A stretch of DNA of 64,000 bases from a virus. Of the stretch, positions 24,331 to 59,915 are shown piece by piece (position 1 is the first letter of the stretch; each line of letters opens with the position of its first letter). Both the position numbers and the translations under genes were made by a program. The stretch lies in IMG/VR virus record IMGVR_UViG_3300042861_001913. The stretch is one strand, 5' to 3'. The notes under the pieces are model-generated. The model was not told where the DNA came from. It made no database searches and worked only from the letters and a program-made list of their open reading frames with translations.

Positions 24331-24338
24331 AATGTTAA

Positions 24339-25514: not shown

Positions 25515-25523
25515 GTGATTCTC

Positions 25524-26669: not shown

Positions 26670-27823
26670 AGTTGAATTGCAACCATTAAGTTATCTCGTG
26701 CAATAGCAACTTCATTTAGAAGTGTGCGAAATTCTAACTTAACTTCATTGTATTTAACTTCAGTATCATCATCATACGTAACTGTAGTTAAAAATTTATC
26801 ATACAATTTACTGATTGATGTGTGACATACAGCATAGTTGTAATAGTTACTAACAGAGGTATTAAACATACGTCTAGCTGTAACTAATCTACTACTAAAG
26901 TTATCTAACTTTTCATTAGATACCTGTCTCAATTCAATCTCCTCAATTGCTTCATCAACTTCATCCCAATCAACGCTCCAGTAACTTAGATAATCAATAA
27001 CTCTGAAATCGCATCTCTCAACTACATTAGACCCACGCAATAATGCAGCACTTTTAATTAATCGCACTGTCCATTGAAATGCTCTAGGACTAACAGTATT
27101 ACCACTATTAGCACTATCTTCAGCTAACTTAGCTAATAGTCGCCATAAGTCAATATTAAATTCAATTAATTTAACATCATTACGCCATTTATCAATGTCA
27201 GTTAACTCAAATTGAACAACTGGTAATTCGTTAACTGATGGATATAATGCAACATAATCGTTAGCATTATGAGATTTCCAACCATGTTCAACTATCATGA
27301 ACCTCTGAAGAAATGCAGCACAACTATTACGTTGATTCTCACGTACTGTAGATGTTACAGATGTGGGATTAATGTTAGTCGCACATACTAGAATCTTGCA
27401 GTTATTAATGATCTCATCACCATTAATATGTATTTTCTTACCTGTAATCACAGCCTTCAGGAAACTAAGTGCATTGAAACTCGCATCTAATACTTCTTCT
27501 AACATGAAGTAGTCATGCTGTAGTAGCGAATTAGCCACATTGTAATACGCTTCAGTTAAACTACCACCTTCTTGATTAATGGTTCTTGCAATTGCGCCAC
27601 CTTTAATAGCAGCACTAGTTGTTTCAGGATCACATTCAAGCATTCCGAAACGTCCATTGAACAGAGATAATGCACTAATTAACATCTCTGATTTACCATA
27701 TCCACCTTCACCATGATAGATGATTGGGATGTCAGCTAATACGCTCAACATAAATGTATCGGCAAACTCATCTACATTAATAAATCCATCATTCTTGAGC
27801 TTATTGATTAAGTTATCTAACAT
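26666..27823 (-). CDS. MoxR/CbbQ/NorQ-like AAA+ ATPase, copy B (385 aa)
   Basis: Walker A HGEGGYGKSEM and the same conserved blocks as copy A. Confidence 0.7.
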   Translation of the reverse strand: MLDNLINKLKNDGFINVDEFADTFMLSVLADIPIIYHGEGGYGKSEMLISALSLFNGRFGMLECDPETTSAAIKGGAIARTINQEGGSLTEAYYNVANSLLQHDYFMLEEVLDASFNALSFLKAVITGKKIHINGDEIINNCKILVCATNINPTSVTSTVRENQRNSCAAFLQRFMIVEHGWKSHNANDYVALYPSVNELPVVQFELTDIDKWRNDVKLIEFNIDLWRLLAKLAEDSANSGNTVSPRAFQWTVRLIKSAALLRGSNVVERCDFRVIDYLSYWSVDWDEVDEAIEEIELRQVSNEKLDNFSSRLVTARRMFNTSVSNYYNYAVCHTSISKLYDKFLTTVTYDDDTEVKYNEVKLEFRTLLNEVAIARDNLMVAIQL

Positions 27824-27885
27824 GGAAACTCCTATTTATTTAATTCTTTGATGCGACGCATGAATACGGTGTAGTTGCTAAATCT

Positions 27886-28383
27886 TCAAGCCAATCTATA
27901 ACCTTGATTATATATTGTCGCATATTTAATCACTCCCATATCAGAAAAGTTGTCTATGAAGCGTTGAATTATCGCAGTATCCTGACTTAGTAAGAAAAAA
28001 GAAGAGTAATGCGCCGGATTACGTCCTGGTTGGAGATAATTGGGGTTACTAACACCATTAACCTCAGTTCTACCATCTATCCAATTAATACGGCTGCGAC
28101 ACTTAACATGAACATAGGTTTCAAGTTCAGGTACTTGCCAGCATACAGACTCACTGTAACCAGCAAATATGATGTTAACACTCTTATCATTCTCATATGT
28201 ATCAATTGCTTTAATTGCCGCACGACTAGCAGGAATGGGCGGATTACAATATACATTACCAGTCCAATCTAATTCATAGCCGCCTGTACCATCAGGAGGA
28301 AATGGATCTAAAGTTGCACCTAATGTTGAATTAACTTTATCCCAAATATATGGTGGTGTATACCAACTACTACTATTAGACAT
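27886..28383 (-). CDS. phage Dam-type DNA N6-adenine methyltransferase
   Basis: N-terminal SSWYTPPYIWDKV...LDPFP and catalytic VYCNPPI (NPPY-like) motif; about 165 aa as in the small phage Dam family. Confidence 0.65.
   Translation of the reverse strand: MSNSSSWYTPPYIWDKVNSTLGATLDPFPPDGTGGYELDWTGNVYCNPPIPASRAAIKAIDTYENDKSVNIIFAGYSESVCWQVPELETYVHVKCRSRINWIDGRTEVNGVSNPNYLQPGRNPAHYSSFFLLSQDTAIIQRFIDNFSDMGVIKYATIYNQGYRLA
27990..28000 (+). repeat. iterated motif GTAAGAAAAAA copy
   Basis: exact; antisense in the methyltransferase gene (FFLL, third phase). Confidence 0.9.
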
Positions 28384-28819
28384 TAATCAAGTACCTCTTA
28401 GCTATATGGAACCAGTGTGGACACAAATCACTTAACTTACTCATCAAATACTCAGTTTGTCCAGGTAGGCATGGTTTAACATCGCGTTTATGAATGCGGC
28501 GTTTAACTGTAATTAGTTGTCTTTTTCTAGTTACATAACTGAAATATTTCTTACCTATTGAGTTATAGCAAAATCCAAGAACATCGGGTTTAAGTTTAGT
28601 TACTGGTATACAAGCTCCCCATTTACCATCTTTAATTAAAATTAAATCACCTCTCTTATTTACACCATCGGATTCTATTAGTATCAGATAATCAGGATTA
28701 CTAATTGCATAATGGAACAACACTGACCAAGTGTAATTCGCAACTAATTTACAGTCAGTACGTTTACTCTCGTTAATTAATTTTATTAGCTGATTCATAA
28801 AGTTCATCAAACTCCTCAT
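28376..28819 (-). CDS. hypothetical protein (147 aa)
   Basis: ORF track. Confidence 0.55.
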   Translation of the reverse strand: MRSLMNFMNQLIKLINESKRTDCKLVANYTWSVLFHYAISNPDYLILIESDGVNKRGDLILIKDGKWGACIPVTKLKPDVLGFCYNSIGKKYFSYVTRKRQLITVKRRIHKRDVKPCLPGQTEYLMSKLSDLCPHWFHIAKRYLINV

Positions 28820-30017
28820 TTATGCAATCTAATATATTTTTACTTAATCCTCGATAATACTCTATATCCCATGCTATATAGAAACCACTATGCGTGCTAG
28901 TTACACGTAAGATATTATGGTAATAACTTATGAGATAATGTCCATCGTAATGTAGACTATAGCTAGTACCACAAAAATATAGTACCGCTTTAACATTATT
29001 CTCGTATCTAAATGTTATGTAGTTAGTGCGATAAAAATTATTTTTATCAAACTCACTAGATTTAGGAAATCCAAATAACTCAATTAACATATTAATGTAA
29101 CGACGCGTATCACTATCTATCTTACCTCTCCATGGTTTATCTACTACTTCAGGTAAGATAAATTCACAATTCTGAGGATTGAATTTAACGTCGGCTAGTG
29201 GGTATTGATATGTCTTAGAACTCTTTGATCTCATCTTGTAGGCTTTAGCTAGTAATGATTCATTCATTACTAGCTGATAATAATAGGTACTAGTTGACGC
29301 TGTATCTTGATAACCGTTAGCCGCTGACGGAATAAATACTGGAATATTTGATCTATGATTACAATGTTTGTATACTGGTGTAGATTGTTGCATAGTACCA
29401 TGCCACCACTCATTTAAGTCATTAAAGTTACTTAATAATATCAGAGCATTACCGTATATATTCTCTAACCATAAACCAAATATCTTAGTATGATCAGGAT
29501 CACTGTACATTATACGTAATTTAGCTCTTGCGGTGAAACCTTTACCATCTACTGACATAGATTCTCCAGCTACCCAGAAAAATAGAGTCTTACCTAGATG
29601 CTTCATATCTCCATCTATTTTATTCATGCTGGAATTAGCATTATGTTTGGCACGATCATCTGTAGCTTGGCATGATGAATAGTAAATCGAATTACCTTGA
29701 TTGCAACAGGTATCTTCATCACTTACTATACGTGTAGTAGAATTTGTTACTGTAGCTGATAATAAATCACTTACATTCTTATTATCTAATCCAATTGATA
29801 ATAAATACCTACTTAACTTCTTATTACCTATTCTCTTACTGCGCCATTCTTCAGGTGTTAATCCACGAGCTAATTCTGCTAATTCAGGCTTGTTAAAATT
29901 GATAGCGGCTAACGTGAGCATATCTTGGTATAGCATATTTAGTCCTCTAATAATTATTAATTCAGACTTAGAAAGTTGATAATTGAATATTAATGGGGGA
30001 GTATAGAACTCCCACAT
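28773..30017 (-). CDS. hypothetical protein (414 aa)
   Basis: ORF track. Confidence 0.6.
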   Translation of the reverse strand: MWEFYTPPLIFNYQLSKSELIIIRGLNMLYQDMLTLAAINFNKPELAELARGLTPEEWRSKRIGNKKLSRYLLSIGLDNKNVSDLLSATVTNSTTRIVSDEDTCCNQGNSIYYSSCQATDDRAKHNANSSMNKIDGDMKHLGKTLFFWVAGESMSVDGKGFTARAKLRIMYSDPDHTKIFGLWLENIYGNALILLSNFNDLNEWWHGTMQQSTPVYKHCNHRSNIPVFIPSAANGYQDTASTSTYYYQLVMNESLLAKAYKMRSKSSKTYQYPLADVKFNPQNCEFILPEVVDKPWRGKIDSDTRRYINMLIELFGFPKSSEFDKNNFYRTNYITFRYENNVKAVLYFCGTSYSLHYDGHYLISYYHNILRVTSTHSGFYIAWDIEYYRGLSKNILDCINEEFDELYESANKIN

Positions 30018-30023
30018 AACTAA

Positions 30024-30215
30024 CTATTTCTTGTTAGTGCTAAATAATCCAACCAGATATGAATTAGTTAGTACACATAACCATAAATCAACTTGAGTTG
30101 TGATACCAAATGTTAATAACCATTTAGTTATAATAACTTGAAGTAACCATCCTCCTAGTACAAAAACACTAACTGTTAATACTAACGCACCTACAGCTTG
30201 TAATGTTAATTTCAT
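30024..30215 (-). CDS. small membrane protein, 2-3 TM segments (63 aa)
   Basis: AVGALVLTVSVFVLGGWLLQVII and LWLCVLTNSYLVGLF hydrophobic stretches, basic tail NKK. Confidence 0.5.
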   Translation of the reverse strand: MKLTLQAVGALVLTVSVFVLGGWLLQVIITKWLLTFGITTQVDLWLCVLTNSYLVGLFSTNKK

Positions 30216-30225
30216 GAGATTCTCC

Positions 30226-30435
30226 TTATTTAACTACTTCAACTAATTGAACTTCAACTAATACTGGTTGGCGCGATTTGTCATTTAGTAATGCTTTTAA
30301 TACATTACTACTATGATGTTTCATTTTAAAAACACGCGCACTAGATAACTTCTTTGACCACCTACCCCATTGTGTTCCTGACGCTCTAGATTGTCGCCAA
30401 TACTCGCCAGTCAACGAGTCTTTAATTATGTACAT
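30226..30435 (-). CDS. hypothetical basic protein (69 aa)
   Basis: ORF track. Confidence 0.5.
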   Translation of the reverse strand: MYIIKDSLTGEYWRQSRASGTQWGRWSKKLSSARVFKMKHHSSNVLKALLNDKSRQPVLVEVQLVEVVK

Positions 30436-30443
30436 TCAGTTTA

Positions 30444-30707
30444 CTACCAATCATCCAACCCCGTAATTCCGACTATCAAATCAACTAATTCATCCTCCGA
30501 CAACTGGCAGTTAGTTAGTTCAGATTGTTTCAGAATATCATTATCTACAAACCTATGAAATTTAAAAAGAAGAGTTTCTGCATTTGCAGCACACATTACG
30601 TCTTTAAATTCTGTACCATAGTAAATCTTTCCAGTTAAACTCATATCTGAGTTAATAGTTATATCAGTTAATACGTAACCTTTATATTCGTTCATTTCTA
30701 ACTCCAA
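30444..30707 (-). CDS. hypothetical protein (87 aa)
   Basis: ORF track. Confidence 0.5.
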   Translation of the reverse strand: MELEMNEYKGYVLTDITINSDMSLTGKIYYGTEFKDVMCAANAETLLFKFHRFVDNDILKQSELTNCQLSEDELVDLIVGITGLDDW

Positions 30708-30776
30708 TAACTACAAGTGAACTATTAGTTAATTGAGTTAAGGTACATCAATTAACTAATACATAATCTACATCAA

Positions 30777-31064
30777 CTAAACTAATGTGAACTTAGTGAA
30801 TGTAAGTTTACCATCATTTACATTAGGTACGATAACTTCATCACCTTTAACTAAAGATTTAATACCTCGTTTACGCTTACCTATATCAATAGATAACGTA
30901 TCTTTAATTAACTTAACTTTGCGAGACTTAGTGTAACTCAAGTTAATAGCATTCTCTAATTGCTCTCTATTAAGAAGTGCATTAAACTCTTGATATCTTA
31001 ATGTACAGTTAGCAGGTAGAATGGAAACAATTGCGGCATTTAGATTAAGTGCGAAGTAAATCAT
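30777..31064 (-). CDS. hypothetical protein (95 aa)
   Basis: ORF track. Confidence 0.5.
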   Translation of the reverse strand: MIYFALNLNAAIVSILPANCTLRYQEFNALLNREQLENAINLSYTKSRKVKLIKDTLSIDIGKRKRGIKSLVKGDEVIVPNVNDGKLTFTKFTLV

Positions 31065-31161
31065 GTTATCTCCAGTTAGAATGAGTTAATTGAACAGTAG
31101 TTAAATAATGTTAATTAAGTGCATTATAATTGCAACTTAATAAATGAGTTAAAGATGTTAA

Positions 31162-31326
31162 TCATAACAGATTTAGAATGTCTTTGTATGATGTAGGTTG
31201 TTTAACTTGATGTTTGTTTAATTGACGTATAGCAAATCTCCCTAATCTATCAAAAGTGACAAAGGTTAAGTTAGTGTTCTCTAAATCAACATCAGGTAAA
31301 GTAACTTTAGTAGCCCACTTATTCAT
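31162..31326 (-). CDS. small hypothetical protein (54 aa, MNKWATKVTLPD...)
   Basis: hand-translated; ATG overlaps the stop of 31319..31591 (ATGAATAA). Confidence 0.4.
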   Translation of the reverse strand: MNKWATKVTLPDVDLENTNLTFVTFDRLGRFAIRQLNKHQVKQPTSYKDILNLL

Positions 31327-31591
31327 TTAACTTTCTCCATTGTTCCCAAGCTTCAGGTAAATATTTTTGTAATGCTTGCCAGTATTCTACTACTTCTGTG
31401 TCGGGATAGTAAGTACAAACTTCACAAGCATCTTCATAGTTAAGGAATGTAGTAGCGTCATTAGGAGAATTACCCCATTCTAAAGTTCCTCTTTTATAAT
31501 ACTTATTTGTTTTAGTATTCTTAACTACATACTTTGAATTTTTAGTCATAGCATAACTTCTTTTTACAGTTTCAGTTGATTCAATACTCAT
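31319..31591 (-). CDS. hypothetical protein (90 aa)
   Basis: ORF track. Confidence 0.5.
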   Translation of the reverse strand: MSIESTETVKRSYAMTKNSKYVVKNTKTNKYYKRGTLEWGNSPNDATTFLNYEDACEVCTYYPDTEVVEYWQALQKYLPEAWEQWRKLNE

Positions 31592-31718
31592 GTAGGTTTT
31601 CCTTTACTAATAAGGACTGCCATTTTATACCACTACCGCATATTACACATTGTTCCATGTTAAATCCTAAATCCATAGTAGTTACTTAACTTAGTTACCT
31701 CGTTAAGTTGAATGTTAA

Positions 31719-31883
31719 TTACACCTTTACTTTCTTGATTGCACGTTTAATTGGTTTACTTAATTCAACAGCTTCATCATAAGTTAGAAACTGTTTATCT
31801 CCAACTATGAATACTTCACGTAACTCGAATCTATCAACTACAGATGTACCGGGTTTAGCAGGTCTAGCGAATACGTTACTCAT
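31719..31883 (-). CDS. small hypothetical protein (54 aa, MSNVFARPAKPG...)
   Basis: hand-translated; strong RBS AGGAGAATAAC before the ATG. Confidence 0.45.
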   Translation of the reverse strand: MSNVFARPAKPGTSVVDRFELREVFIVGDKQFLTYDEAVELSKPIKRAIKKVKV

Positions 31884-31884
31884 G

Positions 31885-31977
31885 TTATTCTCCTAATATT
31901 TTAGAAAGTAAATCAATTACACTGGATAGAAATAATCCAAATAGTGTACCAAGTAAGAAAATAAATAGTATTGGCAT
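31885..31977 (-). CDS. tiny single-TM peptide (30 aa, MPILFIFLLGTLFGLFLSSV...)
   Basis: hand-translated; RBS-like GGAGATTGACA before the ATG. Confidence 0.3.
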   Translation of the reverse strand: MPILFIFLLGTLFGLFLSSVIDLLSKILGE

Positions 31978-31987
31978 TGTCAATCTC

Positions 31988-32539
31988 CTAATAAACTAAT
32001 AGTTCACTATTAAATCGCACTAACTTAAGTAGAGTTAGCAGTTTCCAATCTACAGGAAATGACTTGAATCGGAGATCTGTGCGTGATTTAATTTCCATCT
32101 GTTTAACCTGTTTCCATTTACGTAACTCCTCAATAACACTATCTTTAATTGGTACATCTAACCATTTAGATAACTCAATTAATAATTTAAGTGATTCCGT
32201 ATCAGATGTACATTGAACTACACCTACACTAGATTTATTTCTATGTTGATAAAACGCATATTCGCTGGACTTAACTTGAAAACCAAGCCATTGATCATTT
32301 CGTTTAACTGCAATGTCTACTTGATATACAGAATCAAGTATGGTGTAATTTTCAACTAGATACACTTCATCTAATTGAAGTAACTTGAGAATGTTAACTA
32401 GATACAACTCTGTTTTCTTACCTTTGTTAACAGCAGCTTTAGTATCGTAATTTGGTCTAGTAAGTTTAATTTTATCTAGACCATATATCAGATGATCTAG
32501 TGTTAACTCGTATGGTTTGTCGGCGATCTTGAAGCTCAT
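31988..32539 (-). CDS. hypothetical protein, possible PD-(D/E)XK-like nuclease fold (183 aa from MSFKIADKPY)
   Basis: GAGGACAATGTT-ATG at 32539; VDIAV...GFQVKSS resembles D...(E/Q)xK; weak. Confidence 0.45.
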   Translation of the reverse strand: MSFKIADKPYELTLDHLIYGLDKIKLTRPNYDTKAAVNKGKKTELYLVNILKLLQLDEVYLVENYTILDSVYQVDIAVKRNDQWLGFQVKSSEYAFYQHRNKSSVGVVQCTSDTESLKLLIELSKWLDVPIKDSVIEELRKWKQVKQMEIKSRTDLRFKSFPVDWKLLTLLKLVRFNSELLVY

Positions 32540-32619
32540 AACATTGTCCTCTAAATAAATTGACCAACAAAGAAAGCGCAACTTAATTGCTGCGCTACCT
32601 TAATTGATAATCTATATGG

Positions 32620-32790
32620 TTACTTAAACTTGATATTACTAGTCTCAATCTTCCCCGTATGTTCCTCAACTTCAATCTTAGTTTCAGTTACCTTCTCAGG
32701 TGGAGTATCTTTATCTGCATAACTACTAGTTGTAGTCTTAACTCCATCTTTAATTACAATTTCAATTCCAACTAATCGTTTATCCGACAT
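32620..32790 (-). CDS. small hypothetical protein (56 aa, MSDKRLVGIEIVIKDG...)
   Basis: hand-translated; fills an otherwise empty gap. Confidence 0.4.
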   Translation of the reverse strand: MSDKRLVGIEIVIKDGVKTTTSSYADKDTPPEKVTETKIEVEEHTGKIETSNIKFK

Positions 32791-32912
32791 ACTTATCTCC
32801 TAGATAATGTTTAACTAATGTAGTGAACTTTATCTCCAACATTAAATTTACTCATTATTCATCTCCTTGTGGTGCTGGTATAGTTGGACTTTCTTCTCCA
32901 TTACCTCTTTCA

Positions 32913-33260
32913 TCAGGATCTAACTTCATTACGATTCTCCATAGCAAATAATTCATCACGAGTTAACTCAACACGATCTAAATCGTTATCATCTACAGTG
33001 TCATAGAATAACTTCATAAATTTAGCATTATCAACTTTTAATTTCTCCAATAGCTTAAGACATTCAGTTATACCTCTAACATAATAGTATTCACCATCAA
33101 CACGTATTCTGATAGCTATACTTAATATTTTCTTACCATCTTGATCTGTTACTACATTAATAATTGGTTTCCATGCTGTGTAACGTTTAAGATTAATACC
33201 GCCGCATTCAAGTTCAAAATTCTTCATTATACTCCTAATAAGAATCGGTGTGTTCATCAA
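32913..33260 (-). CDS. hypothetical protein (115 aa)
   Basis: ORF track. Confidence 0.55.
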   Translation of the reverse strand: MMNTPILIRSIMKNFELECGGINLKRYTAWKPIINVVTDQDGKKILSIAIRIRVDGEYYYVRGITECLKLLEKLKVDNAKFMKLFYDTVDDNDLDRVELTRDELFAMENRNEVRS

Positions 33261-33267
33261 CTTACTC

Positions 33268-33277
33268 TTTTTCTTAC
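33268..33277 (-). repeat. iterated 10-mer GTAAGAAAAA copy (intergenic)
   Basis: plus strand TTTTTCTTAC; 7 nt upstream of ATG 33260 in gene direction. Confidence 0.9.
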
Positions 33278-33296
33278 AATTTGAATGTCTTGTGGT

Positions 33297-33641
33297 TCAT
33301 ACGCTAACATTAATCCTACTATCTGGATATATAACACAAGCACTAAGATAACTACTTACGAACTTTACTAAATCCTCATATTTACCCCAACCGTTAGCGG
33401 GATTTAACTTCCTGTATTTATCAGGATCACTAATTAATTCAATCAACCCTTCAGCTAGAGGTTTAATTAACTCACTAGCATTAGTTACTTCTGGATGCCA
33501 TAAACACTCATACAATCCAGCTAATTCAGCCATTGTATTTAGATTGTGAGTTATGTTAGCAGTAAACACTTCAGTAGTAGTTACTTCATCAGATACAACT
33601 ACAACTGGTTCATCTATCGTTAACCAAACATCTAAACTCAT
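33297..33641 (-). CDS. hypothetical protein (114 aa)
   Basis: ORF track. Confidence 0.55.
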   Translation of the reverse strand: MSLDVWLTIDEPVVVVSDEVTTTEVFTANITHNLNTMAELAGLYECLWHPEVTNASELIKPLAEGLIELISDPDKYRKLNPANGWGKYEDLVKFVSSYLSACVIYPDSRINVSV

Positions 33642-33771
33642 TCTAATTCCTCCATAATTACATCATCGTCATCATCACATGAGAAGAGAAACTCATTATA
33701 TGATTCCTTGTTAAGTTTAGTTAGAAGAAGACGTGCATCCTCATTGTGTAGTGTGTACATAAACTTAGTTG

Positions 33772-33800
33772 AACTGTAGTTAAATTACTTAACTACAGTT
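33772..33800 (-). terminator. 12-bp perfect hairpin AACTGTAGTTAA-ATTAC-TTAACTACAGTT after a gene end
   Basis: located 8 nt after the stop of 33808..34206; no clear U-run. Confidence 0.45.
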
Positions 33801-33807
33801 AGTTATC

Positions 33808-34206
33808 CTATCCTAGTTGTTCCAGCATTTTAATCTTCTCTTCCTTACTTAATTCTTTAAGTTGTTTAAGGTCATCTTCATGTATTGCTTCTAATAACTG
33901 TCGCTTCAGTTGAACCTTATTAGCTAATTTAACTCTAGTTGTTTCACGTTCAACAGCTTCAAATGTGAGAGTAGCGTAAACATACTTAATTACTTCACGA
34001 CGTAATTCAAGTTGTTCAGTTAACTGAGATTTAACATCACTTAAACCATCTTCAACTTGTTCGCGCAATTGACGATTAAGTTCCTTATAAGCTACATCTA
34101 AGTCAGGTAACTTACAGTTATATAAGTCTTCAGTAGATATTAATTTACCGTTAACAGAGTAACGTAATGCTAAACGAACAGACTTTTCAATTAATGTTGC
34201 AGTCAT
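33808..34206 (-). CDS. hypothetical coiled-coil protein (132 aa)
   Basis: ORF track. Confidence 0.55.
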   Translation of the reverse strand: MTATLIEKSVRLALRYSVNGKLISTEDLYNCKLPDLDVAYKELNRQLREQVEDGLSDVKSQLTEQLELRREVIKYVYATLTFEAVERETTRVKLANKVQLKRQLLEAIHEDDLKQLKELSKEEKIKMLEQLG

Positions 34207-34268
34207 GAGATTCTCCTAATTGATTGATTAATACACTTTTACTGGATGAGTGTGAACCACAGGAACTG

Positions 34269-36254
34269 TTATACCTTAACTCTCATAGTTCTATTACCAT
34301 TAACTCTAACTACAAAGTTATTACGTAATGTTGAATTAAATCCAACTCCAGATAATTGGTTACTGCAAGATGGTGTCTTTAACTTATCACCAAGTACATC
34401 AAATACCTTACGACTATGCTGAACTAATTCAGACTTAAGATACTCATTAAAGATAGATCGAGGATTATCTGAATTAACACATCCTTCTAACATAAAGAGA
34501 TAGTGTTTTTCACCGATAGCAGTTGTCCAATGATTAGGAGATAAACTAACTAGATTGACCTTATGGAATAAATTAGTCTTAATACCCCATATCTCCTTAG
34601 ATGACACACTAGAACCGCTACTATCAAGTGATTTAACAATAGTAAATCCTTTTAATTTGTCGAATTTAACAGTAACTACAGGTATTGTCTCTCCACCTCG
34701 AAGATTCTTATTATATGCGTAAGAAAAAAGAGTACCATCTATTTCTAATTCAGCAGTAAATCCGCCATTAGATGTACGAAATGAATAGTTATGAACAAAG
34801 TATGTGTATTCACCATCCAGCATTCGGCGGCGATCTATGTGAACTATGTTCTCTACTGCAACTCCTCTAGGAACGCGTATATCAACGTCCAACGAGCCAC
34901 CAGTATTTCTACTAACTTTATTATTGTATGCAATCTCACAATAAAGAGGTTCTATACAATGAGCATCGAAATCAATAATGTTAGCATTATTATCATTCCA
35001 TTGAATACTAAACCTACTAACTACATCATCTACACGTCCACCTGCTGCTTTAACTCTCTCACGCATACTATCAGCATTACCGCCATTGTAAACCCAGCTA
35101 AATGAGTTATCCCACTTAAATAATGTAGGTGCTGCACTATCTACAGCAGTTACTAAACTAACTAAATTACCACTATGGTGCGATTCAAGTAGTAACTCAA
35201 CATTAGTAGCACCAGGTAACACATCATTAATAAACTCATCTATGTTAACTTCATCTAACTTAACTAATGATTTAGGATTTACAGGAACAGCATCTCTGAT
35301 GCTATCAAATACATTAGTATTAAGTTTCTGACTACGATTAATAAACAGAGCATTATTAATGTTAATATCACTCTCATGACAGAACCTCCTATCTAATGCT
35401 GCTTCTAAACCAAGTTCTACAACTAACTTATTAGCTTCCTCTACTTGTTTCTTAGTAGAGATAACTTGATTAGTTCTCATGTAACTACCGCCAGATACTT
35501 TACTCTCGTAAAATCTAATAGCAGCATCTAGATCACGACCATTAGTTAACTCAATTAATAAGTCACCTAATGATGTATCATGTAAATCAGTGATGTAAGT
35601 ATCACAGTTACTCCAACAGTAGTTAACCTTATTAACAGTTAAGTTAGCATACTGTTGTTGATGACGTAGTAACTCATTTAACTTAGCTTTATTTGATTCA
35701 CCTCTATATAGTTGATTCTCTGCAATCAATGATAGAAGTGTTTCAGTTGCATCAATACTAATGTTATCTAGTATTGAAGTTAATACACTATGTTTAACTC
35801 GCTTAAGGTGCATTAATGTATTTTCAGTTAAAAAAGATTGAGTTACTAATGTACTAGGTAACTCATAATAGAGATGTTGCCATTCTACATCAATAGTTAA
35901 ACTACGATCTGTACCTAACTTAGATTGTTTAGTTATGAATACATTAGTTATGTTAGATTCACTAACTAACTTATCTAATGCAGCTATAACTCCTGCATAC
36001 ATAACGTCATCTACAGTGAAATTCCAAATTGACTTAAGTTGATTGTCTTTAATTGCAACTACATTACCATAGTTACGAATAAATGATTTACAACAGTTAC
36101 AGTTAAATCCTTGACGTTCATCATCAGGAAACGCATTTAAATAAGCATCCCATAACTCATTCTTATTAACATCAGTTACATATAACCGAACTTGTTCTTC
36201 AATGAGTTTATTGAAGTTACTTTGAAACAATACTTTAAATTCATTAAATTGCAT
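34269..36254 (-). CDS. large hypothetical protein (661 aa) with N-terminal Cys cluster FNCNCCKSF
   Basis: ORF track; no domain recognised. Confidence 0.65.
   Translation of the reverse strand: MQFNEFKVLFQSNFNKLIEEQVRLYVTDVNKNELWDAYLNAFPDDERQGFNCNCCKSFIRNYGNVVAIKDNQLKSIWNFTVDDVMYAGVIAALDKLVSESNITNVFITKQSKLGTDRSLTIDVEWQHLYYELPSTLVTQSFLTENTLMHLKRVKHSVLTSILDNISIDATETLLSLIAENQLYRGESNKAKLNELLRHQQQYANLTVNKVNYCWSNCDTYITDLHDTSLGDLLIELTNGRDLDAAIRFYESKVSGGSYMRTNQVISTKKQVEEANKLVVELGLEAALDRRFCHESDININNALFINRSQKLNTNVFDSIRDAVPVNPKSLVKLDEVNIDEFINDVLPGATNVELLLESHHSGNLVSLVTAVDSAAPTLFKWDNSFSWVYNGGNADSMRERVKAAGGRVDDVVSRFSIQWNDNNANIIDFDAHCIEPLYCEIAYNNKVSRNTGGSLDVDIRVPRGVAVENIVHIDRRRMLDGEYTYFVHNYSFRTSNGGFTAELEIDGTLFSYAYNKNLRGGETIPVVTVKFDKLKGFTIVKSLDSSGSSVSSKEIWGIKTNLFHKVNLVSLSPNHWTTAIGEKHYLFMLEGCVNSDNPRSIFNEYLKSELVQHSRKVFDVLGDKLKTPSCSNQLSGVGFNSTLRNNFVVRVNGNRTMRVKV
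34729..34739 (+). repeat. iterated motif GTAAGAAAAAA copy
   Basis: exact; antisense in 34269..36254 (LFSY). Confidence 0.9.
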
Positions 36255-36281: not shown

Positions 36282-36539
36282 TCTAAACTAACTTAATTAA
36301 CAATGAATAGTTATCACTAAATGTAATAACTATAGTTACATCATCTTCATTAACTATAGATAAGATAACCTTACCTAAGATATCTGTAAGTGGATAACAT
36401 CTACTTAACATACCTTTAGATAATGAATAAAACTCATAACTGTAACTTAATGTAGAGTTAGTTAAGTTAATGAATACTTTATCTTTACTTGCACTAACTC
36501 CATCAACAGTATCTCCAATTGCATCATAGTTAACTGCAT
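36282..36539 (-). CDS. hypothetical protein (85 aa, MQLTMMQLEILLMELVQVKIKVFINLTNSTLSYSYEF...) absent from the supplied ORF track
   Basis: hand translation twice gives an uninterrupted ATG-to-TAG frame; AGAGGAG 8 nt upstream of the ATG. Confidence 0.45.
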
Positions 36540-36764
36540 GATCTAAACTCCTCTAATTAATGATTACTTACTTAACTCAGTTAACGCTACATAACGTAAC
36601 TTCATTAACTGAGCATAGAATGGGTTGATCTTACATAGACTTGGAATAGTAACACTAAATCCTGCAAACTTAAATGACTTATAATGGACAAGTTACAGGA
36701 ACTAAAGCAACTATTAATTGAGCTAGTTGTTTCTTACTTAACTAAATATCTCTCTAATTAAGAT

Positions 36765-36778
36765 ACTTAGTATACTAA
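36765..36778. repeat. perfect 14-bp palindrome CTTAGTATACTAAG flanked by direct TAAGATACTT repeats
   Basis: seen at the AT-rich/GC-richer transition, 36758-36785. Confidence 0.7.
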
Positions 36779-36789
36779 GATACTTCACT

Positions 36790-37239
36790 AACTCGCCCCT
36801 TACACTGTTCTAGGAAATTTAGATAGATCTATCCTAAATACCTAACATTACTACTACTAGTAGTCTTTTTAACGTTGCGACTTGTTGTTAACTCAGTGCA
36901 ACTAATTACTTACCATTGATCCTAACTATTGCTAGGTGGTGTCACTTGACTTGTCGGGACATTACCTGGTATCTCTAGATGTCCGAACATTGTGCAACCG
37001 TGATAGTGACCTTCTTTATGTTTTAGCTCTAGAGCCAGGACTTTCACCCTGATCACGGTGTAGACTACTGGTGTTCTGAGGTGTCTTGATGAGACCCAGT
37101 GCCTACGGAATGAGTAAACCCCTTAAACTCATACTCCGCATACCAGCCAATACCGTAAACTACGTGACGCAGTATCAAGGGATCTTTCGATATTAGCTAG
37201 TAATATCATAACTTAGTTTTTAATAAATTTACAACTAAA
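36790..37239. other. GC-richer stretch with no ORF of 60 aa or more, containing nested inverted repeats (function unknown)
   Basis: no ORF of 60 aa or more on either strand; stems GTCACT 36941-46/AGTGAC 37005-10 enclosing GGACAT 36957-62/ATGTCC 36979-84; hairpin 37105-37138; palindrome GCTCTAGAGC. Confidence 0.5.
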
Positions 37240-38868
37240 TTATTTCAATTTACTGCACATAGCACTACATACGACCCGAAAACCGCAGTAGCTGTCACGA
37301 ATGCCGCGCGAATCCCCATTGCGATACGCAGACCGACAGCCCCCAGCATAGGAGTACCAAGAACCGCCCCGCAGTACAACGCGTCCTGTTTTGTCACTTA
37401 GTTTATCATCACTACTAAACCATGCGCTGCCATCTGCTGGTGCATCTGTATAATTATCATGCCAAGGATCTGCACACCATTCCCACACATTTCCGTGCAT
37501 ATCATATAAACCAAAAGGGTTGGCGGGAAATTTTCCAACTTCTGTGGTTTTTTTTCGATATTCTCCTTTTTGTCCCTGCCCGTAAGTGTAGTTACCATTA
37601 TAATTAGCTAAATCTGTAGAAATTGTTTCCCCACAATAAAACGGGGTAGTAGTTCCTCCACGACAAGCATATTCCCATTCGGCTTCAGTAGGTAAACGAT
37701 AGGTTTTATTTGCCATTCGGGAAAGTCTGGCACAAAATTCTTGAGCATCATTCCATGATACACACTCAACAGGCAGATTATCACCTTTAAAACAAGATGG
37801 ATCAGATTCTAAATCAATGTTAACCTTTGGTAAGGCAGCCACGACTCGCCATTGTTGTTGAGTAACTGGATATTTACCCATGAAAAACGGGGGAACAGTA
37901 ACTTGATGTTGTGGACTTTGAGAAGAATGATAACCTTCCTCATTTTCTGGAGAACCCATGATAAAAGTCCCCCCAGGGATAGCCACCATTTCTAGTTGAG
38001 TGTCGTTAGCTAAGTCTTCTAATGCCAAATCTTTTATTTCTTCTAAGTTCATGAATTTTTGTTGTTCTTCACTACTTAAACGATTCCATTTACTGCACAT
38101 AGCACTACACACAACCCGAAAACCAATATTGAGGTAGTAGTAGTCGAGATTGAAGGCGTTGCGATAAGCAGAACGGCAATAGTCAGGATGGTAGTACCAC
38201 GAACCACCGCGCAGCAGCCTTCTGTTACTATCCTTTTTGTTACTTAACCATGCGCTTCCATCTGTTGGCGCACCTTCATAATTATTATGCCAATGGTCTT
38301 GACACCACTCATATACATTGCCGTGCATATCGTATAATCCAAAATTATTGGCTACTCCAAAGCTGCCTACTGCTGTTGTTTCTCCTCTATCAACTCCTTT
38401 AACCCCATCGCCATAAGTGGAATTACCATCATAATTAGCTAAATCCGTTGTTATCGTTTCTCCAAAGTGAAATGGTGTGGTAGTTCCGGCTCGACAGGCA
38501 TATTCCCATTCAGCTTCACTGGGAAGACGGTAGGTTCTACCTGTATATTGTGAAAGGCGATCGCAAAACTCAACCGCATCTTCCCAAGAAACTTGCTCAA
38601 CGGGACGATTATCACCTTTAAATCTAGACGGATCTTGCTCTAAATCACGGTTCACTTGGGGTAACTGTGCCACAAATCGCCATTGTTCTTGGGTGACTTG
38701 ATATTTACCCATAAAAAAGGGTTCTATTGTAACTTCATGTTGTGGACGTTCACTATCCATGCTATTTTCCTCTTCTTTTGGTGAACCCATGATAAAAGTG
38801 CCACCGGGGATTGCAGCCATTTCCAATATCACACCATTTCCTAAATCTTCAACAAAAATGTTTTTCAT
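37240..38868 (-). CDS. tandem FGE-sulfatase (SUMF1/EgtB/PvdO family, C-type-lectin fold) domain protein
   Basis: two copies of the pattern [14 protein letters not shown]...PQHxVT...FFMGKYxVTQxQW...WEYACRxGTTTPF...YDMHGNVxEWCxD...LRGGSWY...CRSAYRN...[12 protein letters not shown]. Confidence 0.85.
37249..37284 (-). repeat. 36-nt conserved tail repeat, copy 2 (34/36 identical to 38089-38124), just 3' of hypervariable patch 37285-37356
   Basis: TTTACTGCACATAGCACTACATACGACCCGAAAACC versus ...ACACACAACCC...; encodes [12 protein letters not shown]. Confidence 0.85.
38089..38124 (-). repeat. 36-nt conserved tail repeat, copy 1, just 3' of hypervariable patch 38125-38196
   Basis: see 37249-37284. 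Confidence 0.85.
38557..38564. repeat. HIP1 octamer GCGATCGC (single copy)
   Basis: exact palindrome; HIP1 is the highly iterated palindrome of many cyanobacterial genomes. Confidence 0.6.
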
Positions 38869-38893
38869 GCGTATTTTATTCCTTGTAGACGCT

Positions 38894-39259
38894 TTATTCT
38901 ATCCACTCTAAAAACTCTATTTTCATCTTTACAGATTGCTTGAACAGTCTGTAGTCAAACTTAGATGACAGCATCAGGTTCGATTCATAGGGCTTTATGC
39001 CTTTACACCAACTAACAGATATGTGAGGACATTTGTTAGCGCAGGGAATATGATCAGGAAGTTTGACAGCTACAGCTTGTATTTTGCCGTTCCAAGCTTC
39101 ATATAAAGTTGTGGCTTGGAACTCTAAACCCTCCCACTCTTTCCAGTCTTGGCGGACAACCCCAAACTGGAGTGTTGTATGGTGGGGACTCCCCACGGGG
39201 TAGAGTGGGGAAATTATTAGGGGCGACTGGATTACACCCCACAGGATACCGTTAGTCAT
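38894..39259 (-). CDS. small 2H-phosphoesterase-like protein (LigT/2',5'-PDE-like), tentative
   Basis: two HxT/S motifs: [10 protein letters not shown] and CPHISVSW; unusually short (121 aa). Confidence 0.4.
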
Positions 39260-39620
39260 CTAAAGAAACTAACGAATAGACAATCTTTGTTTTTATGTCT
39301 TCTGTTTGTTCTGTTAGTGGTAAGTCCACTAACTCGGAATCAAGCAATAAAACTTTAATTCCGAGGTTTGTTAACTTAATTAAAGTCAGTCCGGTAACTG
39401 AAGCAGCGATAATTTGATCGCCTTTGTTTAAGGCTATCTCAGTCGTGTTAACTACATCTTTGTCATCGAAACAATATTCTATCTCTTCGACAATTAAATA
39501 ATTTCCATTTTCTTCCAAATAAAAGTCAAAAGTATTGCCTCGACTTTCTCGCTCGTAGCTATAGTCGGGATTAATCCCGAAAAGTTCGTTAAACTCTTGT
39601 GAAATAAAAGAATAAATCAT
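39252..39620 (-). CDS. hypothetical protein (122 aa), GC-richer island
   Basis: ORF track. Confidence 0.55.
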   Translation of the reverse strand: MIYSFISQEFNELFGINPDYSYERESRGNTFDFYLEENGNYLIVEEIEYCFDDKDVVNTTEIALNKGDQIIAASVTGLTLIKLTNLGIKVLLLDSELVDLPLTEQTEDIKTKIVYSLVSLDD

Positions 39621-39712
39621 TGCTTACTCCTAAGTGGGTGTGTGTAAAGTGACTTCCCACGACTACCAGGTGGTAGTTTCGGACGGTAGCCAGCCGTCCA
39701 TCATCAGGTGGG

Positions 39713-40036
39713 TTAAACGGTAATAAAAGGTTGCCAACCTGGTTTTACTCGACGGCTTTCTAACCATTTCTCTTCTTCCAGTTCTTTTTCCAGATCAGCG
39801 CGGGTAATAGCCGCTTCTCCTTCCACTCCTTCCATCAGGAAAGTGTCGCCTAATGGGGCGCGTTCAATTGCAGTCAATGGTGTTAGCCACTCATGATCGT
39901 CAGGTATTTCTTTAATTTCCCCAGCAAATTTAATATCAGGGGACTTGGAATAACCAACCAAGTCCCCTTGGTTTGTTGTGTAAGCGTATTCAACCAGGTT
40001 ATAGCAATAACCATCTACTATCATTGTTGTTTGCAT
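39713..40036 (-). CDS. hypothetical protein (107 aa), GC-richer island
   Basis: ORF track; RBS AAGGAAGGAAACA before the ATG. Confidence 0.55.
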   Translation of the reverse strand: MQTTMIVDGYCYNLVEYAYTTNQGDLVGYSKSPDIKFAGEIKEIPDDHEWLTPLTAIERAPLGDTFLMEGVEGEAAITRADLEKELEEEKWLESRRVKPGWQPFITV

Positions 40037-40076
40037 TGTTTCCTTCCTTTGTTTGATGTTTATCTGACTAATTAGC

Positions 40077-40117
40077 CAGCAACATCTATCAAGTCTCGCA
40101 TTTGATAGATGTTGCTG
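40077..40117 (-). repeat. CAGCAA-clamped hairpin cassette U1 (16-bp stem)
   Basis: CAGCAACATCTATCAA 40077-92 pairs with TTGATAGATGTTGCTG 40102-17; flanked by CTGAATAACTA and ATGTTTATCTGA, both shared with U2. Confidence 0.7.
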
Positions 40118-40122
40118 AATAA

Positions 40123-40341
40123 CTAATGATAGTAATGTAGTTTTACTGCACCATAGAACTTATCATCTTCATAGTGATCTAATGCTGTTATAACAGGTAT
40201 ATCAACCTTAGATACTACAAAGGTATTAATAACTGTAGTAATTATGAAGTAGTTACTACGTCTAACTACCATTACTATGTTAGATGTATCTATCGCTAGA
40301 ACACTTCCTTTTAAAATTGTGTATCCACCCACTGTCATCAT
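40123..40341 (-). CDS. hypothetical protein (72 aa), AT-rich ORF between two hairpin cassettes
   Basis: ORF track. Confidence 0.45.
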   Translation of the reverse strand: MMTVGGYTILKGSVLAIDTSNIVMVVRRSNYFIITTVINTFVVSKVDIPVITALDHYEDDKFYGAVKLHYYH

Positions 40342-40368
40342 TGTTGTTTCCCTCTTCAGTATTTACAA

Positions 40369-40406
40369 CAGCAGTTTAATGACGTGCTTAGGTCGTTTAA
40401 GTGCTG
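40369..40406 (-). repeat. CAGCA-clamped hairpin cassette U0
   Basis: CAGCA 40369-73 / TGCTG 40402-06 with an imperfect inner stem; just after the stop of 40417..40800. Confidence 0.5.
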
Positions 40407-40416
40407 AACAGAATGA

Positions 40417-40800
40417 TTAGTGTTGTTTTGTGATTTCGGTCGGCATTATATCCTCAGATGGGGAGTTTTGGACTCGTGTCTTTTTTTCTTTCAGTTTTTC
40501 TACGTCCTTTTGTAAAAGTCGGTAGAGATTTTCTAAGGTGTTTTCTGGTTTAGTTCTAGGGACTCTACCAATTTCCCTTTCCCGTTCTTCTAAAAAGACT
40601 GCATTTCTAACTTTTTCATAGTCAAGATACCATTGACGGATAGCTTCTGCAACTACTTCAGGAGGTTCAGTTTCTATACCAGCGATAGTTTTTTGTAATT
40701 CTGTGATAGCATCTAAAGAAACGTCCGAAAAAACATAATCTTGGTTTCTCACGACTTCGGTAAATGCTTGGATAATTTGATTAGATTCTATTGGAGTCAT
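40417..40800 (-). CDS. hypothetical protein (127 aa), GC-richer, cyanobacterium-like composition
   Basis: ORF track. Confidence 0.55.
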   Translation of the reverse strand: MTPIESNQIIQAFTEVVRNQDYVFSDVSLDAITELQKTIAGIETEPPEVVAEAIRQWYLDYEKVRNAVFLEEREREIGRVPRTKPENTLENLYRLLQKDVEKLKEKKTRVQNSPSEDIMPTEITKQH

Positions 40801-47581: not shown

Positions 47582-49231
47582 ATGACTTCCCGCGAACAAT
47601 TAGAAAAAGAACTAGCTAACATAGAGAACAAGTTATATGAACTAGCGATACTAGATAATAAGGATGAACAGTATGAATTAGAATCACTACTAGAAGAACA
47701 AAGTTACGTTCAAGCATATCAATCTAGTTACAGTTTCCTAGCTCATAGTTGGCAGACATTCAATGGTGAAGTATTCCTACCAGCTAAACATCTACACGCA
47801 ATAGCCGAACATCTAGATGCAACATTAACTGGTGAAATAAAACGACTTATAATTAACGTACCACCTAGAACTGCTAAGTCAGCATTAGTAACTAAAGCAT
47901 TTCCAGCCTATTGTTGGATAAGGCAGCCTCATCTTAAATTCGCCAACGTTAGTTATGGTTATGGATTAGCAGAAGAAGGTAGTGTACATAGTCGTCAGAT
48001 AATGCAATCTGATTGGTATAAGCGAGGTATGGCTACAGTATGGCGCGATATGGGTGCTACACCATGGGAGTTCAGACGCGATAAGAATATGAAGAATGAC
48101 TATGAGAATAATGCTAATGGTCGTAGATTCGCCACATCATGTCCTGAAGGTATCTTCACTGGTATTGGTGCAGACACAATTATAATTGACGACCCTGTTA
48201 AAGCTAACGCTGCATATAGTAAGAATACACTTGATAAAGTTAATCAATGGGTCAGCAATACTCTGATGTCGCGTTTAAACAACCAATCAGAAGGTGTTAT
48301 CATCTTGGTTCAACAAAGGGTTAGTGAAATGGATATGACTGGTTTTTTCTTACAACAAGAAGGAGTTTGGGAACATCTATGTCTCCCAATGGAATATGAA
48401 GACACTCAGAGATACTGGACTCGCATTGGTTGGACTGATTGGCGCACTAATCAGAATGAATTACTTGAACCAATTCGATTTCCGCGAGATGTGGTTGAGA
48501 GGCTCAAGAAGGACGAGGAATGGAGCTATGCTAGTCAATATCAACAACAACCAGTTCCGCTCGGTGGTGGACTTATTAGGCGTGAATGGTGGCAGAATTG
48601 GTACATACTTCCAACTCAGTTTGATGCAACTTGCATGGCATTCGATTTATCTATGAACGATAAGGAAACTAGCGATAATACGTCACTTATAGTTATGGGA
48701 CGTAAGGATAACAAGTTCTACATTATTGACTTAGTGTATGGCAAAATGGATATACTTAAACAAGTAGAATCCATAATTGAGTTGTGTAATAAGTATCCGA
48801 TGATAAGAACTAGGTTAATTGAACAACGTGCAAATGGAGATGCTGTAATTGCATTACTTAAACGTACCATAACTGGACTTATACCACTCATAACTAAAGG
48901 TGATAAAGAACAACGTATCCTTAGTTGTGTGCCAGAAATTAATGCAGGTAACGTATTAGTTCCAGATGAGAATGTACATAGTTGGATTAAACCACTATTA
49001 CTAGAAGCTACTATGTTTCCACGTGGTAAGAATGATGATGCTATTGATAGTATGCAGATGGCACTTAATCATCTAGTTACGTCAAACATCGTTACTTATA
49101 TGCCACTTCAAGTTATTACAGATAGTCCAGGTAATACAACTCGTGCTGAAATAAGAGAACATATAATGGATAGTAGTTATGCTGTTACAGTTAATGTGAC
49201 TCGTAACTATATTAAAGGTTTATTTGAATAA
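47582..49231 (+). CDS. terL: terminase large subunit
   Basis: ATPase IINVPPRTAKSALVT and IIIDDP; nuclease half FDLSMNDKETSDNTSLIVMG...YIIDLVYGKM...GDKEQRI...FPRGKNDDAIDSM. Confidence 0.85.
   Translation: MTSREQLEKELANIENKLYELAILDNKDEQYELESLLEEQSYVQAYQSSYSFLAHSWQTFNGEVFLPAKHLHAIAEHLDATLTGEIKRLIINVPPRTAKSALVTKAFPAYCWIRQPHLKFANVSYGYGLAEEGSVHSRQIMQSDWYKRGMATVWRDMGATPWEFRRDKNMKNDYENNANGRRFATSCPEGIFTGIGADTIIIDDPVKANAAYSKNTLDKVNQWVSNTLMSRLNNQSEGVIILVQQRVSEMDMTGFFLQQEGVWEHLCLPMEYEDTQRYWTRIGWTDWRTNQNELLEPIRFPRDVVERLKKDEEWSYASQYQQQPVPLGGGLIRREWWQNWYILPTQFDATCMAFDLSMNDKETSDNTSLIVMGRKDNKFYIIDLVYGKMDILKQVESIIELCNKYPMIRTRLIEQRANGDAVIALLKRTITGLIPLITKGDKEQRILSCVPEINAGNVLVPDENVHSWIKPLLLEATMFPRGKNDDAIDSMQMALNHLVTSNIVTYMPLQVITDSPGNTTRAEIREHIMDSSYAVTVNVTRNYIKGLFE
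48343..48353 (-). repeat. iterated motif GTAAGAAAAAA copy
   Basis: plus strand TTTTTTCTTAC inside terL (GFFLQ, third phase). Confidence 0.9.
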
Positions 49232-56748: not shown

Positions 56749-56755
56749 TACAACT

Positions 56756-58546: not shown

Positions 58547-58552
58547 ACTATT

Positions 58553-59530: not shown

Positions 59531-59537
59531 ATAAATT

Positions 59538-59915
59538 ATGTACATTTTATCTGACTATTCATTATCAACATTTGCAAGACGATTAGGTTCTAAAGATAAG
59601 AAGAAGAGAGAACGTCCTAGTATTAGACGTGGTATGTTAACTGGTGCTAAATGGGGTGCTGGGTTAGGTGTTGGTTTAACGGGTTTAACTATCGCTTCGG
59701 CATTAGCTCGTAAAGATGGTAGACAAGCTATGAGAGCAGCATTAAAAGCACAAGGTCGTAATCCTAGTCTTAGAAAAAATGCAGGTATGTTAGCTGGAGG
59801 TGCAGGATTAATTGCTGGAGTTAATGCACTAACTGGCGGTATTCAAGGTGGACTTATTGGAGGTGGAGTTAATGCGATTAGAAAATACCAATACGATAGG
59901 AATAACTCTAAATAA
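59538..59915 (+). CDS. tag-family protein P7 (FARRLGSKDKKKRER tag, Gly-rich; 125 aa)
   Basis: MYILSDYSLSTFARRLGSKDKKKRER...GAGLGVGLTGLTIA...GGAGLIAGVNALTGGIQGGLIGGG. Confidence 0.65.
   Translation: MYILSDYSLSTFARRLGSKDKKKRERPSIRRGMLTGAKWGAGLGVGLTGLTIASALARKDGRQAMRAALKAQGRNPSLRKNAGMLAGGAGLIAGVNALTGGIQGGLIGGGVNAIRKYQYDRNNSK

Follow-up and report, generated by a model that had tools for sequence, protein, structure and literature searches.

Gene and Domain Organization

The window analyzed here is the whole 64,000-nt stretch of the IMG/VR virus record IMGVR_UViG_3300042861_001913, and our subject is a minus-strand gene at 37240–38868 encoding a 542-aa protein with two domains of the FGE-sulfatase type, which has a C-type-lectin (CLec) fold. 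Each domain ends in a hypervariable patch, and we found the templates of both patches in diversity-generating retroelements (DGRs) of cyanobacterial hosts. An initial annotation had described the product as a tandem FGE-sulfatase protein, in agreement with Pfam, which finds PF03781 in two stretches of this open reading frame (ORF; E = 7.8e-115). The protein holds only the two tandem FGE domains, starts directly at the first of them, and has no effector or anchor domain. Domain 1 lies at 38110–38826 (minus strand; approximate bounds, taken from its register with domain 2, the internal direct repeats being offset by 831–840 nt), and domain 2, residues 293–533, is the Pfam stretch at 37270–37992 (minus strand). 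At the nucleotide level domain 1 is 78.7% identical to the gene for a 279-aa FGE target of a host DGR cassette (L034, described below), and domain 2 is 90.6% identical over 725 nt to a host gene encoding a TIR-FGE protein (L055/L056). The closest solved relatives in a PDB sequence search are PvdO (5hha, 5e-40) and the DGR variable protein TvpA (2y3c, 1.6e-21). At the sequence level, PF03781 and the TvpA match place the FGE/CLec fold where the variable regions (VRs) lie, at the C-terminal end of each domain.

Both domains end in RGGSW, six variable residues, CRSAYRN, eleven variable residues and a conserved tail, the motif that the initial annotation had read from the sequence. Its other counts held up as well: the 36-nt tails at 37249–37284 and 38089–38124 agree at 34 of 36 positions, the parts upstream of the patches, estimated at about three-quarters identical, are 71–82% identical as internal repeats, and NNC codons occupy 8/11 and 6/11 positions of the two 11-codon patches. 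The segment bearing the catalytic cysteines in FGE presumably corresponds, by eye, to the variable codons here.

The window belongs to a tailed phage of low GC content, whose large terminase gene lies at 47582–49231. Independent assemblies of the phage genome measure 121,994 and 121,842 bp and begin at different points, a pattern that suits a free genome with circular permutation better than a prophage.

Variable Regions and Their Templates

A search for template repeats (TRs) that carry adenines at the mismatched positions found one for each patch, both on host contigs. VR1 (38103–38217, minus strand; variable codons 38132–38196) is homologous to host TR-B (L034 4306–4420), and VR2 (37271–37368, minus strand; variable codons 37286–37356) is homologous to host TR-A (L018 7507–7646). 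Over 98 nt VR2 differs from TR-A at 16 positions, all 16 of them template adenines, of which the tract holds 26 (hypergeometric P = 5.6e-12). Over 115 nt VR1 differs from TR-B at 14 positions, and again every one is a template adenine (32 in the tract; hypergeometric P = 1.3e-9). Pooled, 30/30 mismatches to two independently found templates fall on adenine sites. The two patches are genuine DGR variable regions derived from two different templates, and their host-template origin is essentially shown. The suggestion in the initial annotation of an orphan or remote DGR target carried by a phage, with two VRs in one polypeptide, is thus borne out as far as the existence of both templates and the adenine mismatches are concerned.

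TR-A was predicted before it was found. When the type-A VRs of six phage loci were aligned by codon, the variation proved to be confined almost entirely to codon positions 1 and 2, the third being nearly always fixed, and the template predicted from this alignment reads TGG AAC AAC AAT GCT AGG AAC TGT CGG TCT GCG AAT CGC AAT AGG AAT TCG CGC GAC AAT CGT AAC AAC AAC TAC GGT TTT CGG. The strict first form of this pattern had no match in IMG/VR or in the GTDB genomes. A looser pattern matched the sole GTDB genome with TR-A, which reads ACT where the VRs read GCT; in this genome scan a 654-bp contig in a metagenome-assembled genome (MAG) of Anabaena sp. CRKS33 yielded the predicted repeat with that single change, followed by an avd-like ORF. 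Five further TR-A copies came from a metagenome scan, and in the core that was compared three of these match the prediction exactly. Besides L018, TR-A is present on L019 and L021, with variants on L016, L017, L020 and L033. Of the mismatches between TR-A and the type-A VRs of the phage loci, between 14/15 and 19/19 per VR are at adenines.

As diverged paralogues at the identity given above, the two domains could in principle be the product of ordinary drift after duplication of a lectin-fold gene, the NNC patches having arisen by chance or by selection. This is refuted by the 30/30 adenine mismatches together with the nearly invariant third codon positions, and we give it practically no weight. 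Two other sources were tried and rejected. The patches did not serve as templates for each other, since they differ at 51 positions of which 40 are not adenines, and TR-C, a third template type found beside the reverse transcriptase (RT) P0176 (L029/L030), fits neither patch, with 18 non-adenine mismatches against VR1.

Host DGR Cassettes

The templates adjoin bAvd and DGR-type RT genes on cyanobacterial host contigs of the Anabaena/Aphanizomenon/Dolichospermum group, and TR-A and TR-B belong to two different cassettes, each of them complete with target, bAvd, RT and TR. The TR-A-type cassette on L020 consists of a kinase-FGE target (582 aa), TR-A, avd (116 aa) and an RT of 356 aa with IGNLTSQ and YVDD motifs, and the cluster of RTs identical to it spans 241 contigs, named Anabaena sp. 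CRKS33. The flanks of the TR-A locus are cyanobacterial, with HflX-like and polyphosphate-kinase-like ORFs (translations read by eye) and a GC content of 0.37–0.39 (0.37 on L020), and TR-A variants accompany the RTs P0125 and P0127. The cassette on L034 has two FGE targets, one of them the stand-alone, FGE-only protein of 279 aa, followed by bAvd (PF22296), the RT (PF00078) and, downstream of the RT, TR-B.

The host homologues of the window protein are TIR-, kinase- or caspase-FGE proteins that are 78–84% identical to it per domain and end in GFRVVSSFRTW/L or GFRVVCSGAART; several are named Aphanizomenon, Dolichospermum or Anabaena by their source records. No DGR lies beside the Aphanizomenon TIR-FGE gene (L007) or beside the gene for the kinase-FGE protein P0064 (L022).

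The cassettes differ in layout: TR-A sits between target and avd (L020 2907–3046), and TR-B (L034 4306–4445) and TR-C (L029 ~6187–6320) come after the RT. In all host cassettes the TR is followed by a conserved segment, CAGAACTG..GGGAATT..TCGGGCG..AGAGTCCA.ACCT, presumably the spacer of the DGR RNA. The cassette on L021 (4916–5146) is decayed, with avd cut to 76 aa and two small ORFs in place of the RT.

Search for DGR Machinery in the Phage

The initial annotation had reported no RT, avd or template in the window, and every search we ran agrees. The repeat search found no further copy of either patch in the window, an adenine-tolerant sliding scan of both strands gave a best non-self match with 38–40 non-adenine mismatches in 141 nt, and none of the six frames holds a YxDD motif in a DGR-RT-like context. 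With three host DGR RTs and two Avds as queries, tblastn against the window and the related phage loci returned only noise, and blastn with TR-A and TR-B against the same sequences returned no match. Rfam (at the gathering threshold) and tRNA searches of the whole window were also empty.

Beyond the window, we covered about 110 of the 122 kb of the phage genome through walked flanks (L024, L026) and the IMG/VR contig 3300042519_002574 (L042, L051, L053), and no RT, Avd or TR was found in this part on the replicon that carries the VRs. A DGR of the phage's own, elsewhere in its genome and acting on the gene in cis in the manner of Bordetella phage BPP-1, would have to lie in the remaining ~11 kb (equivalent to 24330–35571 of that contig); that this part falls outside the examined sequence is a point for such a DGR and a point against rewriting by host DGRs, and the conserved phage-specific tail described below could be the initiation of mutagenic homing (IMH) element of a phage-borne system. 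A cis-acting DGR would, however, need two different template types, and when IMG/VR was scanned for the tail of the phage, the scaffold of the VRs and both templates, only VRs or nothing came back. The metagenome scan for the unmutated TR-A core returned only cyanobacterial copies with the host-type tail, though the collection includes JGI phage contigs, and no ~122-kb contig is among the carriers of the 120 closest RT relatives. A DGR of the phage's own is likely absent, and diversification in cis is accordingly a very improbable explanation.

The Tail after the Variable Regions

Following VR2, the gene closes with a tail at 37240–37270 (minus strand; ATGTAGTGCTATGTGCAGTAAATTGAAATAA, encoding ..CSAMCSKLK*) that is specific to the phage family and stands in place of the host IMH-type sequence. 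It is identical in the related phage loci L006, L009, L010 and L012–L015 and differs from the tail of host TR-A at 22 of 28 positions. After VR1 the phage-specific tail (38089–38102, minus strand, part of the 36-nt stretch that is nearly identical in both domains) is read through into the linker between the domains, the TR-B homology of VR1 stopping at ...TGTAGTG. The phage-type tail takes the form ..GGTTTTCGGGTYGTRTGTAGTGCTATGTGCAG. The initial annotation had called the tail IMH-like. It is conserved across the phage family but matches the templates for only 14 nt (TR-A) or 22 nt (TR-B) past the last variable codon and has no host GC-rich segment, so that an IMH role is at most putative. Where the host B-type tail can form a 10-bp stem around the GC-rich segment, the stem after the phage VR is weak (5 bp). 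We considered whether the phage tail is a host tail from which the GC-rich loop was deleted, and the supporting match was too short to claim this.

In all phages the tail begins with GTATGTAGTG, which is B-like. Type-A VRs joined to type-B tails are found in the host protein P0115 (tail ..GFRVVCSGAART) and in the phage loci L009–L014, and such combinations imply that cassettes of one DGR can land in targets that have the 3′ end of another.

Exchange with the Host and Proposed Rewriting of the Variable Regions

The phage homologues of the window protein are single-domain proteins of 305–412 aa, plus one of 872 aa, and all end in the exact phage tail. On the contigs inspected (P0037, P0063 and the IMG/VR loci) they occupy a syntenic position upstream of a DUF8224 gene (L006, L009, L010–L015). 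Proteins with this tail account for at least 16 alleles of the VR, which include both template types and share one identical 3′ junction. When the alleles were checked against the residues that A-to-N changes in TR-A or TR-B can produce, most fit at 24/24 positions and the lowest at 22–23; the lower-fit alleles mostly have Leu at codon 16, matching a TR variant with TTG (L033).

The clearest pair is L006 and L014, which differ at 41 positions over ~1100 aligned nt, with 39 of the 41 differences inside the TR-homologous tract. This tract runs from the 5′ start of template homology (CTGCT) to the last variable codon and switches the VR from type B to type A, and the phage tail and 295 nt downstream of it are identical in the two loci. 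A replaced tract limited to the span of the template is what retrohoming produces, whereas by ordinary recombination it would arise only if both crossovers fell within 14–21 nt.

Overall, we consider it likely that the gene is a phage copy of the hypervariable, ligand-binding FGE-type CLec domains that DGRs diversify in bloom-forming Nostocales, and that its VRs are rewritten in trans by host DGRs from time to time. In this scheme the host DGR would make adenine-mutagenized cDNA during infection, and the VR cassette of the phage would occasionally be replaced by this cDNA (retrohoming in trans), with the shared ends CTGCT..GGTTC.TGG and GGTTTTCGGGT acting as junctions. Conversion from host VRs through short homology could provide a second route. 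As the mode of transfer, retrohoming in trans is more likely, and conversion from host VRs is the main alternative. A host hypermutation system and a viral gene would then appear to be coupled across genomes.

Several findings pull the other way. The phage tail lacks the IMH-like GC-rich segment of the host (GTGCGGCGAGG in the B type, GTCTTCGTTCAGG in the A type), and the 3′ end of a VR shares with its TR only GGTTTTCGGGTCGT (A type) or GGTTTTCGGGTTGTGTGTAGTG (B type) before the phage tail replaces the GC-rich continuation of the host. Since this segment is missing and template homology extends only 14–22 nt, the competence of these VRs for retrohoming is unproven. VR2 also has 10/15 variable codons in common with the VR of the host TIR-FGE gene P0068 (L055/L056, whose synteny matches an Aphanizomenon MAG), which points to descent or conversion rather than to fresh cDNA. 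Finally, at least 11 contigs, from at least 5 samples, encode the same window protein, among them strains with a different upstream gene, and its sole variant, Q322E, lies outside the VRs. This invariance gives no sign of ongoing diversification, so that rewriting, if it occurs, is rare, or the allele has swept; the variation of VRs between constant flanks is seen between related phages (L006/L014 and the 16 alleles), not among assemblies of the window allele, which we infer to be currently fixed.

All three of these points also suit an explanation in which mutagenesis occurs only in host genes, and the phage acquires already diversified VRs and domain segments by recombination or conversion, no cDNA entering phage DNA at all. 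That such recombination occurs is seen in the window gene itself, where a block at 37500–37995 (minus strand) is identical to P0068 at 488/496 nt (98.4%) while the adjoining 125 nt (37375–37499) are only 54% identical. The phage gene is therefore a mosaic, and the block marks a recent exchange between host and phage. Similarly, P0063, P0065 and P0085 have a common 3′ half of the VR and differing 5′ halves, a conversion-like mosaic. Against imported VRs, the tract exchanged between L006 and L014 matches the TR span and carried no flanking scaffold differences with it, which would demand the closely spaced crossovers noted above, and the many alleles on one identical 3′ junction also count against it. 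In addition, VR2 and the VR of P0068 differ at 8 positions, and all 8 are template-adenine sites. We therefore regard import alone as rather unlikely, and rewriting in trans by host DGRs remains the explanation that we prefer.

Function

In phages, the targets classically diversified by DGRs are C-type-lectin-fold proteins that bind receptors, and the VR faces of TvpA-type proteins are ligand-binding surfaces. The initial annotation had raised host recognition or adhesion as a role. A virion receptor-binding or adhesion protein comparable to Mtd, with VRs that track variation of the host surface, would agree with the C-type-lectin fold and the TvpA match. The position of the gene does not support this, as it lies in a minus-strand, non-structural block of small ORFs and adjoins a 2H-phosphoesterase-like gene, while the terminase and head genes are on the plus strand at 47.6–62 kb. 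Furthermore, the protein starts directly at an FGE domain with no N-terminal anchor, and its nearest relatives are the cytoplasmic TIR-, kinase- or caspase-FGE proteins of the host. A virion adhesin is thus improbable.

Probably, the protein is an effector-less double binding module of the cytoplasm. It could mirror the DGR-diversified sensor domains of the host and, for instance, compete with TIR-, kinase- or caspase-linked sensors or act as their decoy. Three features lead to this suggestion: the chain opens with the first FGE domain and lacks an effector or anchor, the neighbouring genes are non-structural, and the nearest relatives are cytoplasmic host proteins for which others have proposed a role as invader sensors. 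A point against it is that the host also has stand-alone FGE-only targets, such as the 279-aa protein on L034, so the absence of an effector alone is no proof of a decoy role. Taken as a whole, the scenario in which host DGRs write into a gene of a non-integrated phage, and in which the effector-less double sensor copy serves as a decoy or competitor, or as a binding module that co-opts host hypermutation, is one that we put forward tentatively, as possible rather than probable.

Flanking Sequence and Other Phage Genes

The gene is enclosed in a GC-richer island at 36800–40100 (GC 0.40–0.45, against 0.30–0.33 in the flanks of the composition profile). Upstream of the FGE gene, gene content varies between related phages. 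On the 3′ side, the initial annotation had pointed to a GC-richer region of roughly 450 bp with no ORF of 60 aa or more, and a region of this kind is found at 36412–37239, where no ORF exceeds 44 aa and GC is 0.42–0.45 compared with ~0.31. Within it lies a conserved noncoding, GC-richer stretch of ~600 nt (36644–37239, minus strand) that is 99.5–100% identical in all phage relatives, whereas the adjoining FGE gene is only 73–83% identical. This stretch has no blastn match to the host DGR loci compared and no Rfam match at E ≤ 1, its folding z-scores are only −1.3 and −1.4, and a promoter and terminator scan gave background levels.

Just upstream of the FGE gene, a 121-aa ORF at 38894–39259 (minus strand) matches the tRNA-ligase cyclic phosphodiesterase domain (PF08302). 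By Pfam, the phage also encodes Thg1, a polynucleotide kinase-phosphatase and a T4-type RNA ligase 1 (4043–4771, 11179–12027 and 12018–13094, minus strand), and together with the PF08302 ORF these look like an RNA-repair set, possibly directed against host anticodon nucleases. Further upstream, an intergenic 75-nt segment (39638–39712) shares 91% identity with a part of Aphanizomenon phage vB_AphaS-CL131 (MG209611, 105158–105232) that bears no annotation. It is the only DNA-level match to GenBank phage records (INPHARED) of the stretch compared, 36500–40500.

Six adjacent proteins at 55795–62785 have in common the peptide (V)KVKS[FY]xRKGKxVxxYxR. It is N-terminal in five of them (55795–56748, 58553–59530, 59915–60646 and 60643–61728 on the plus strand, and 61721–62785 on the minus strand) and near the C-terminus in the sixth (56756–58546). 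The motif is visible at the DNA level as the repeat families D2–D4 and the inverted repeats I1, I2 and I4, and it may be a shared targeting or propeptide signal. In the phage genome beyond the window (L026 472–1314 and 2888–4189; L024 12978–14114 and 16935–19139) we found an ADP-ribosyltransferase-toxin-like protein (PF03496), a GIY-YIG protein, an AAA_15/AAA_21 ATPase and a class II ribonucleotide reductase adjoining a cobalamin adenosyltransferase.

Comparison with Known Systems

DGRs are known as self-contained cassettes that diversify genes within their own genome. If host DGR cDNA enters phage DNA, the target range of a DGR is not limited to one replicon. Full-text searches gave no account of a phage gene serving as the target of a host DGR, and if the present case is true it would be the first cross-genome DGR targeting and the first phage counter-measure to a DGR-based ‘adaptive’ sensor repertoire. 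Large DGR surveys need the RT and the VR on one contig and state that targets away from the RT are missed (Roux et al. 2021, PMC8144416), so host-templated targets on phages would have been missed by them. A phage whose gene reproduces, at 98.4% nucleotide identity, the sensor domains alone of a host protein linked to TIR is also a natural test system for the invader-sensor hypothesis discussed below, and the finding ties an uncultured freshwater phage to bloom-forming Aphanizomenon/Dolichospermum.

The closest parallel is with the cyanobacterial DGRs that have remote CLec/FGE targets (Vallota-Eastman et al. 2020, PMC7517822), in which CLec/FGE-sulfatase target genes are dispersed and fused to kinase, caspase or TIR domains, and none of which has been definitively assigned to a prophage. 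The host systems described here are alike in RT clade, in bAvd and in the C-terminal VR of an FGE-type CLec target, the cyanobacterial RTs being 68–100% identical among themselves. Having several targets per template is also common to both, and the host cassettes on L020, L031, L034 and L029 are of the same kind. The window target is unlike them in that it sits on another replicon, the ~122-kb phage, and has no N-terminal signalling or effector domain; moreover, its polypeptide joins the VRs of two DGRs, and where the hosts have an IMH-type sequence it carries a phage 3′ tail.

A role in sensing invaders has been proposed for the CLec proteins that multicellular bacteria diversify with DGRs (Dore et al. 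2023, bioRxiv 10.1101/2023.09.22.558884). The TIR-, kinase- and caspase-FGE relatives in the host fit this class of putative antigen sensors, while the phage protein differs from them in being a sensor domain only and in standing on the side of the invader. The same work describes no phage-borne copies and makes no mention of ‘decoy’ or ‘cyanophage’.

Like the window gene, Mtd of Bordetella phage BPP-1 is a phage gene with a C-type-lectin-fold VR produced by adenine-specific mutagenesis. BPP-1, however, has the whole cassette (Mtd, TR, Avd, Brt) in cis and a tail-fibre receptor-binding protein as its target, whereas for the window phage no cassette was found, the templates are on host chromosomes and the gene is non-structural. 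An FGE-type C-type-lectin fold and a C-terminal DGR VR are also found in TvpA (Treponema denticola variable protein 1, 2y3c), but it is a single-domain bacterial protein diversified by a DGR in cis, where the window protein is two-domain and phage-borne. Among phages, gp062 of Microcystis phage Ma-LMM01 and its homologues in MaMV-DC, annotated as ‘kinase’, are lone FGE domains 58–59% identical to the window protein, gp062 at 58%. The Ma-LMM01 protein (NC_008562.1 41679–42509; L057 1483–2313) ends in RGGSW SSVPDCCRSAIRYDYYRRVFRSDDI GFRVVCVG with NNC-rich codons, which is VR-like by its look alone. Judging from such sequences, VR-like FGE genes may be general in cyanophages.

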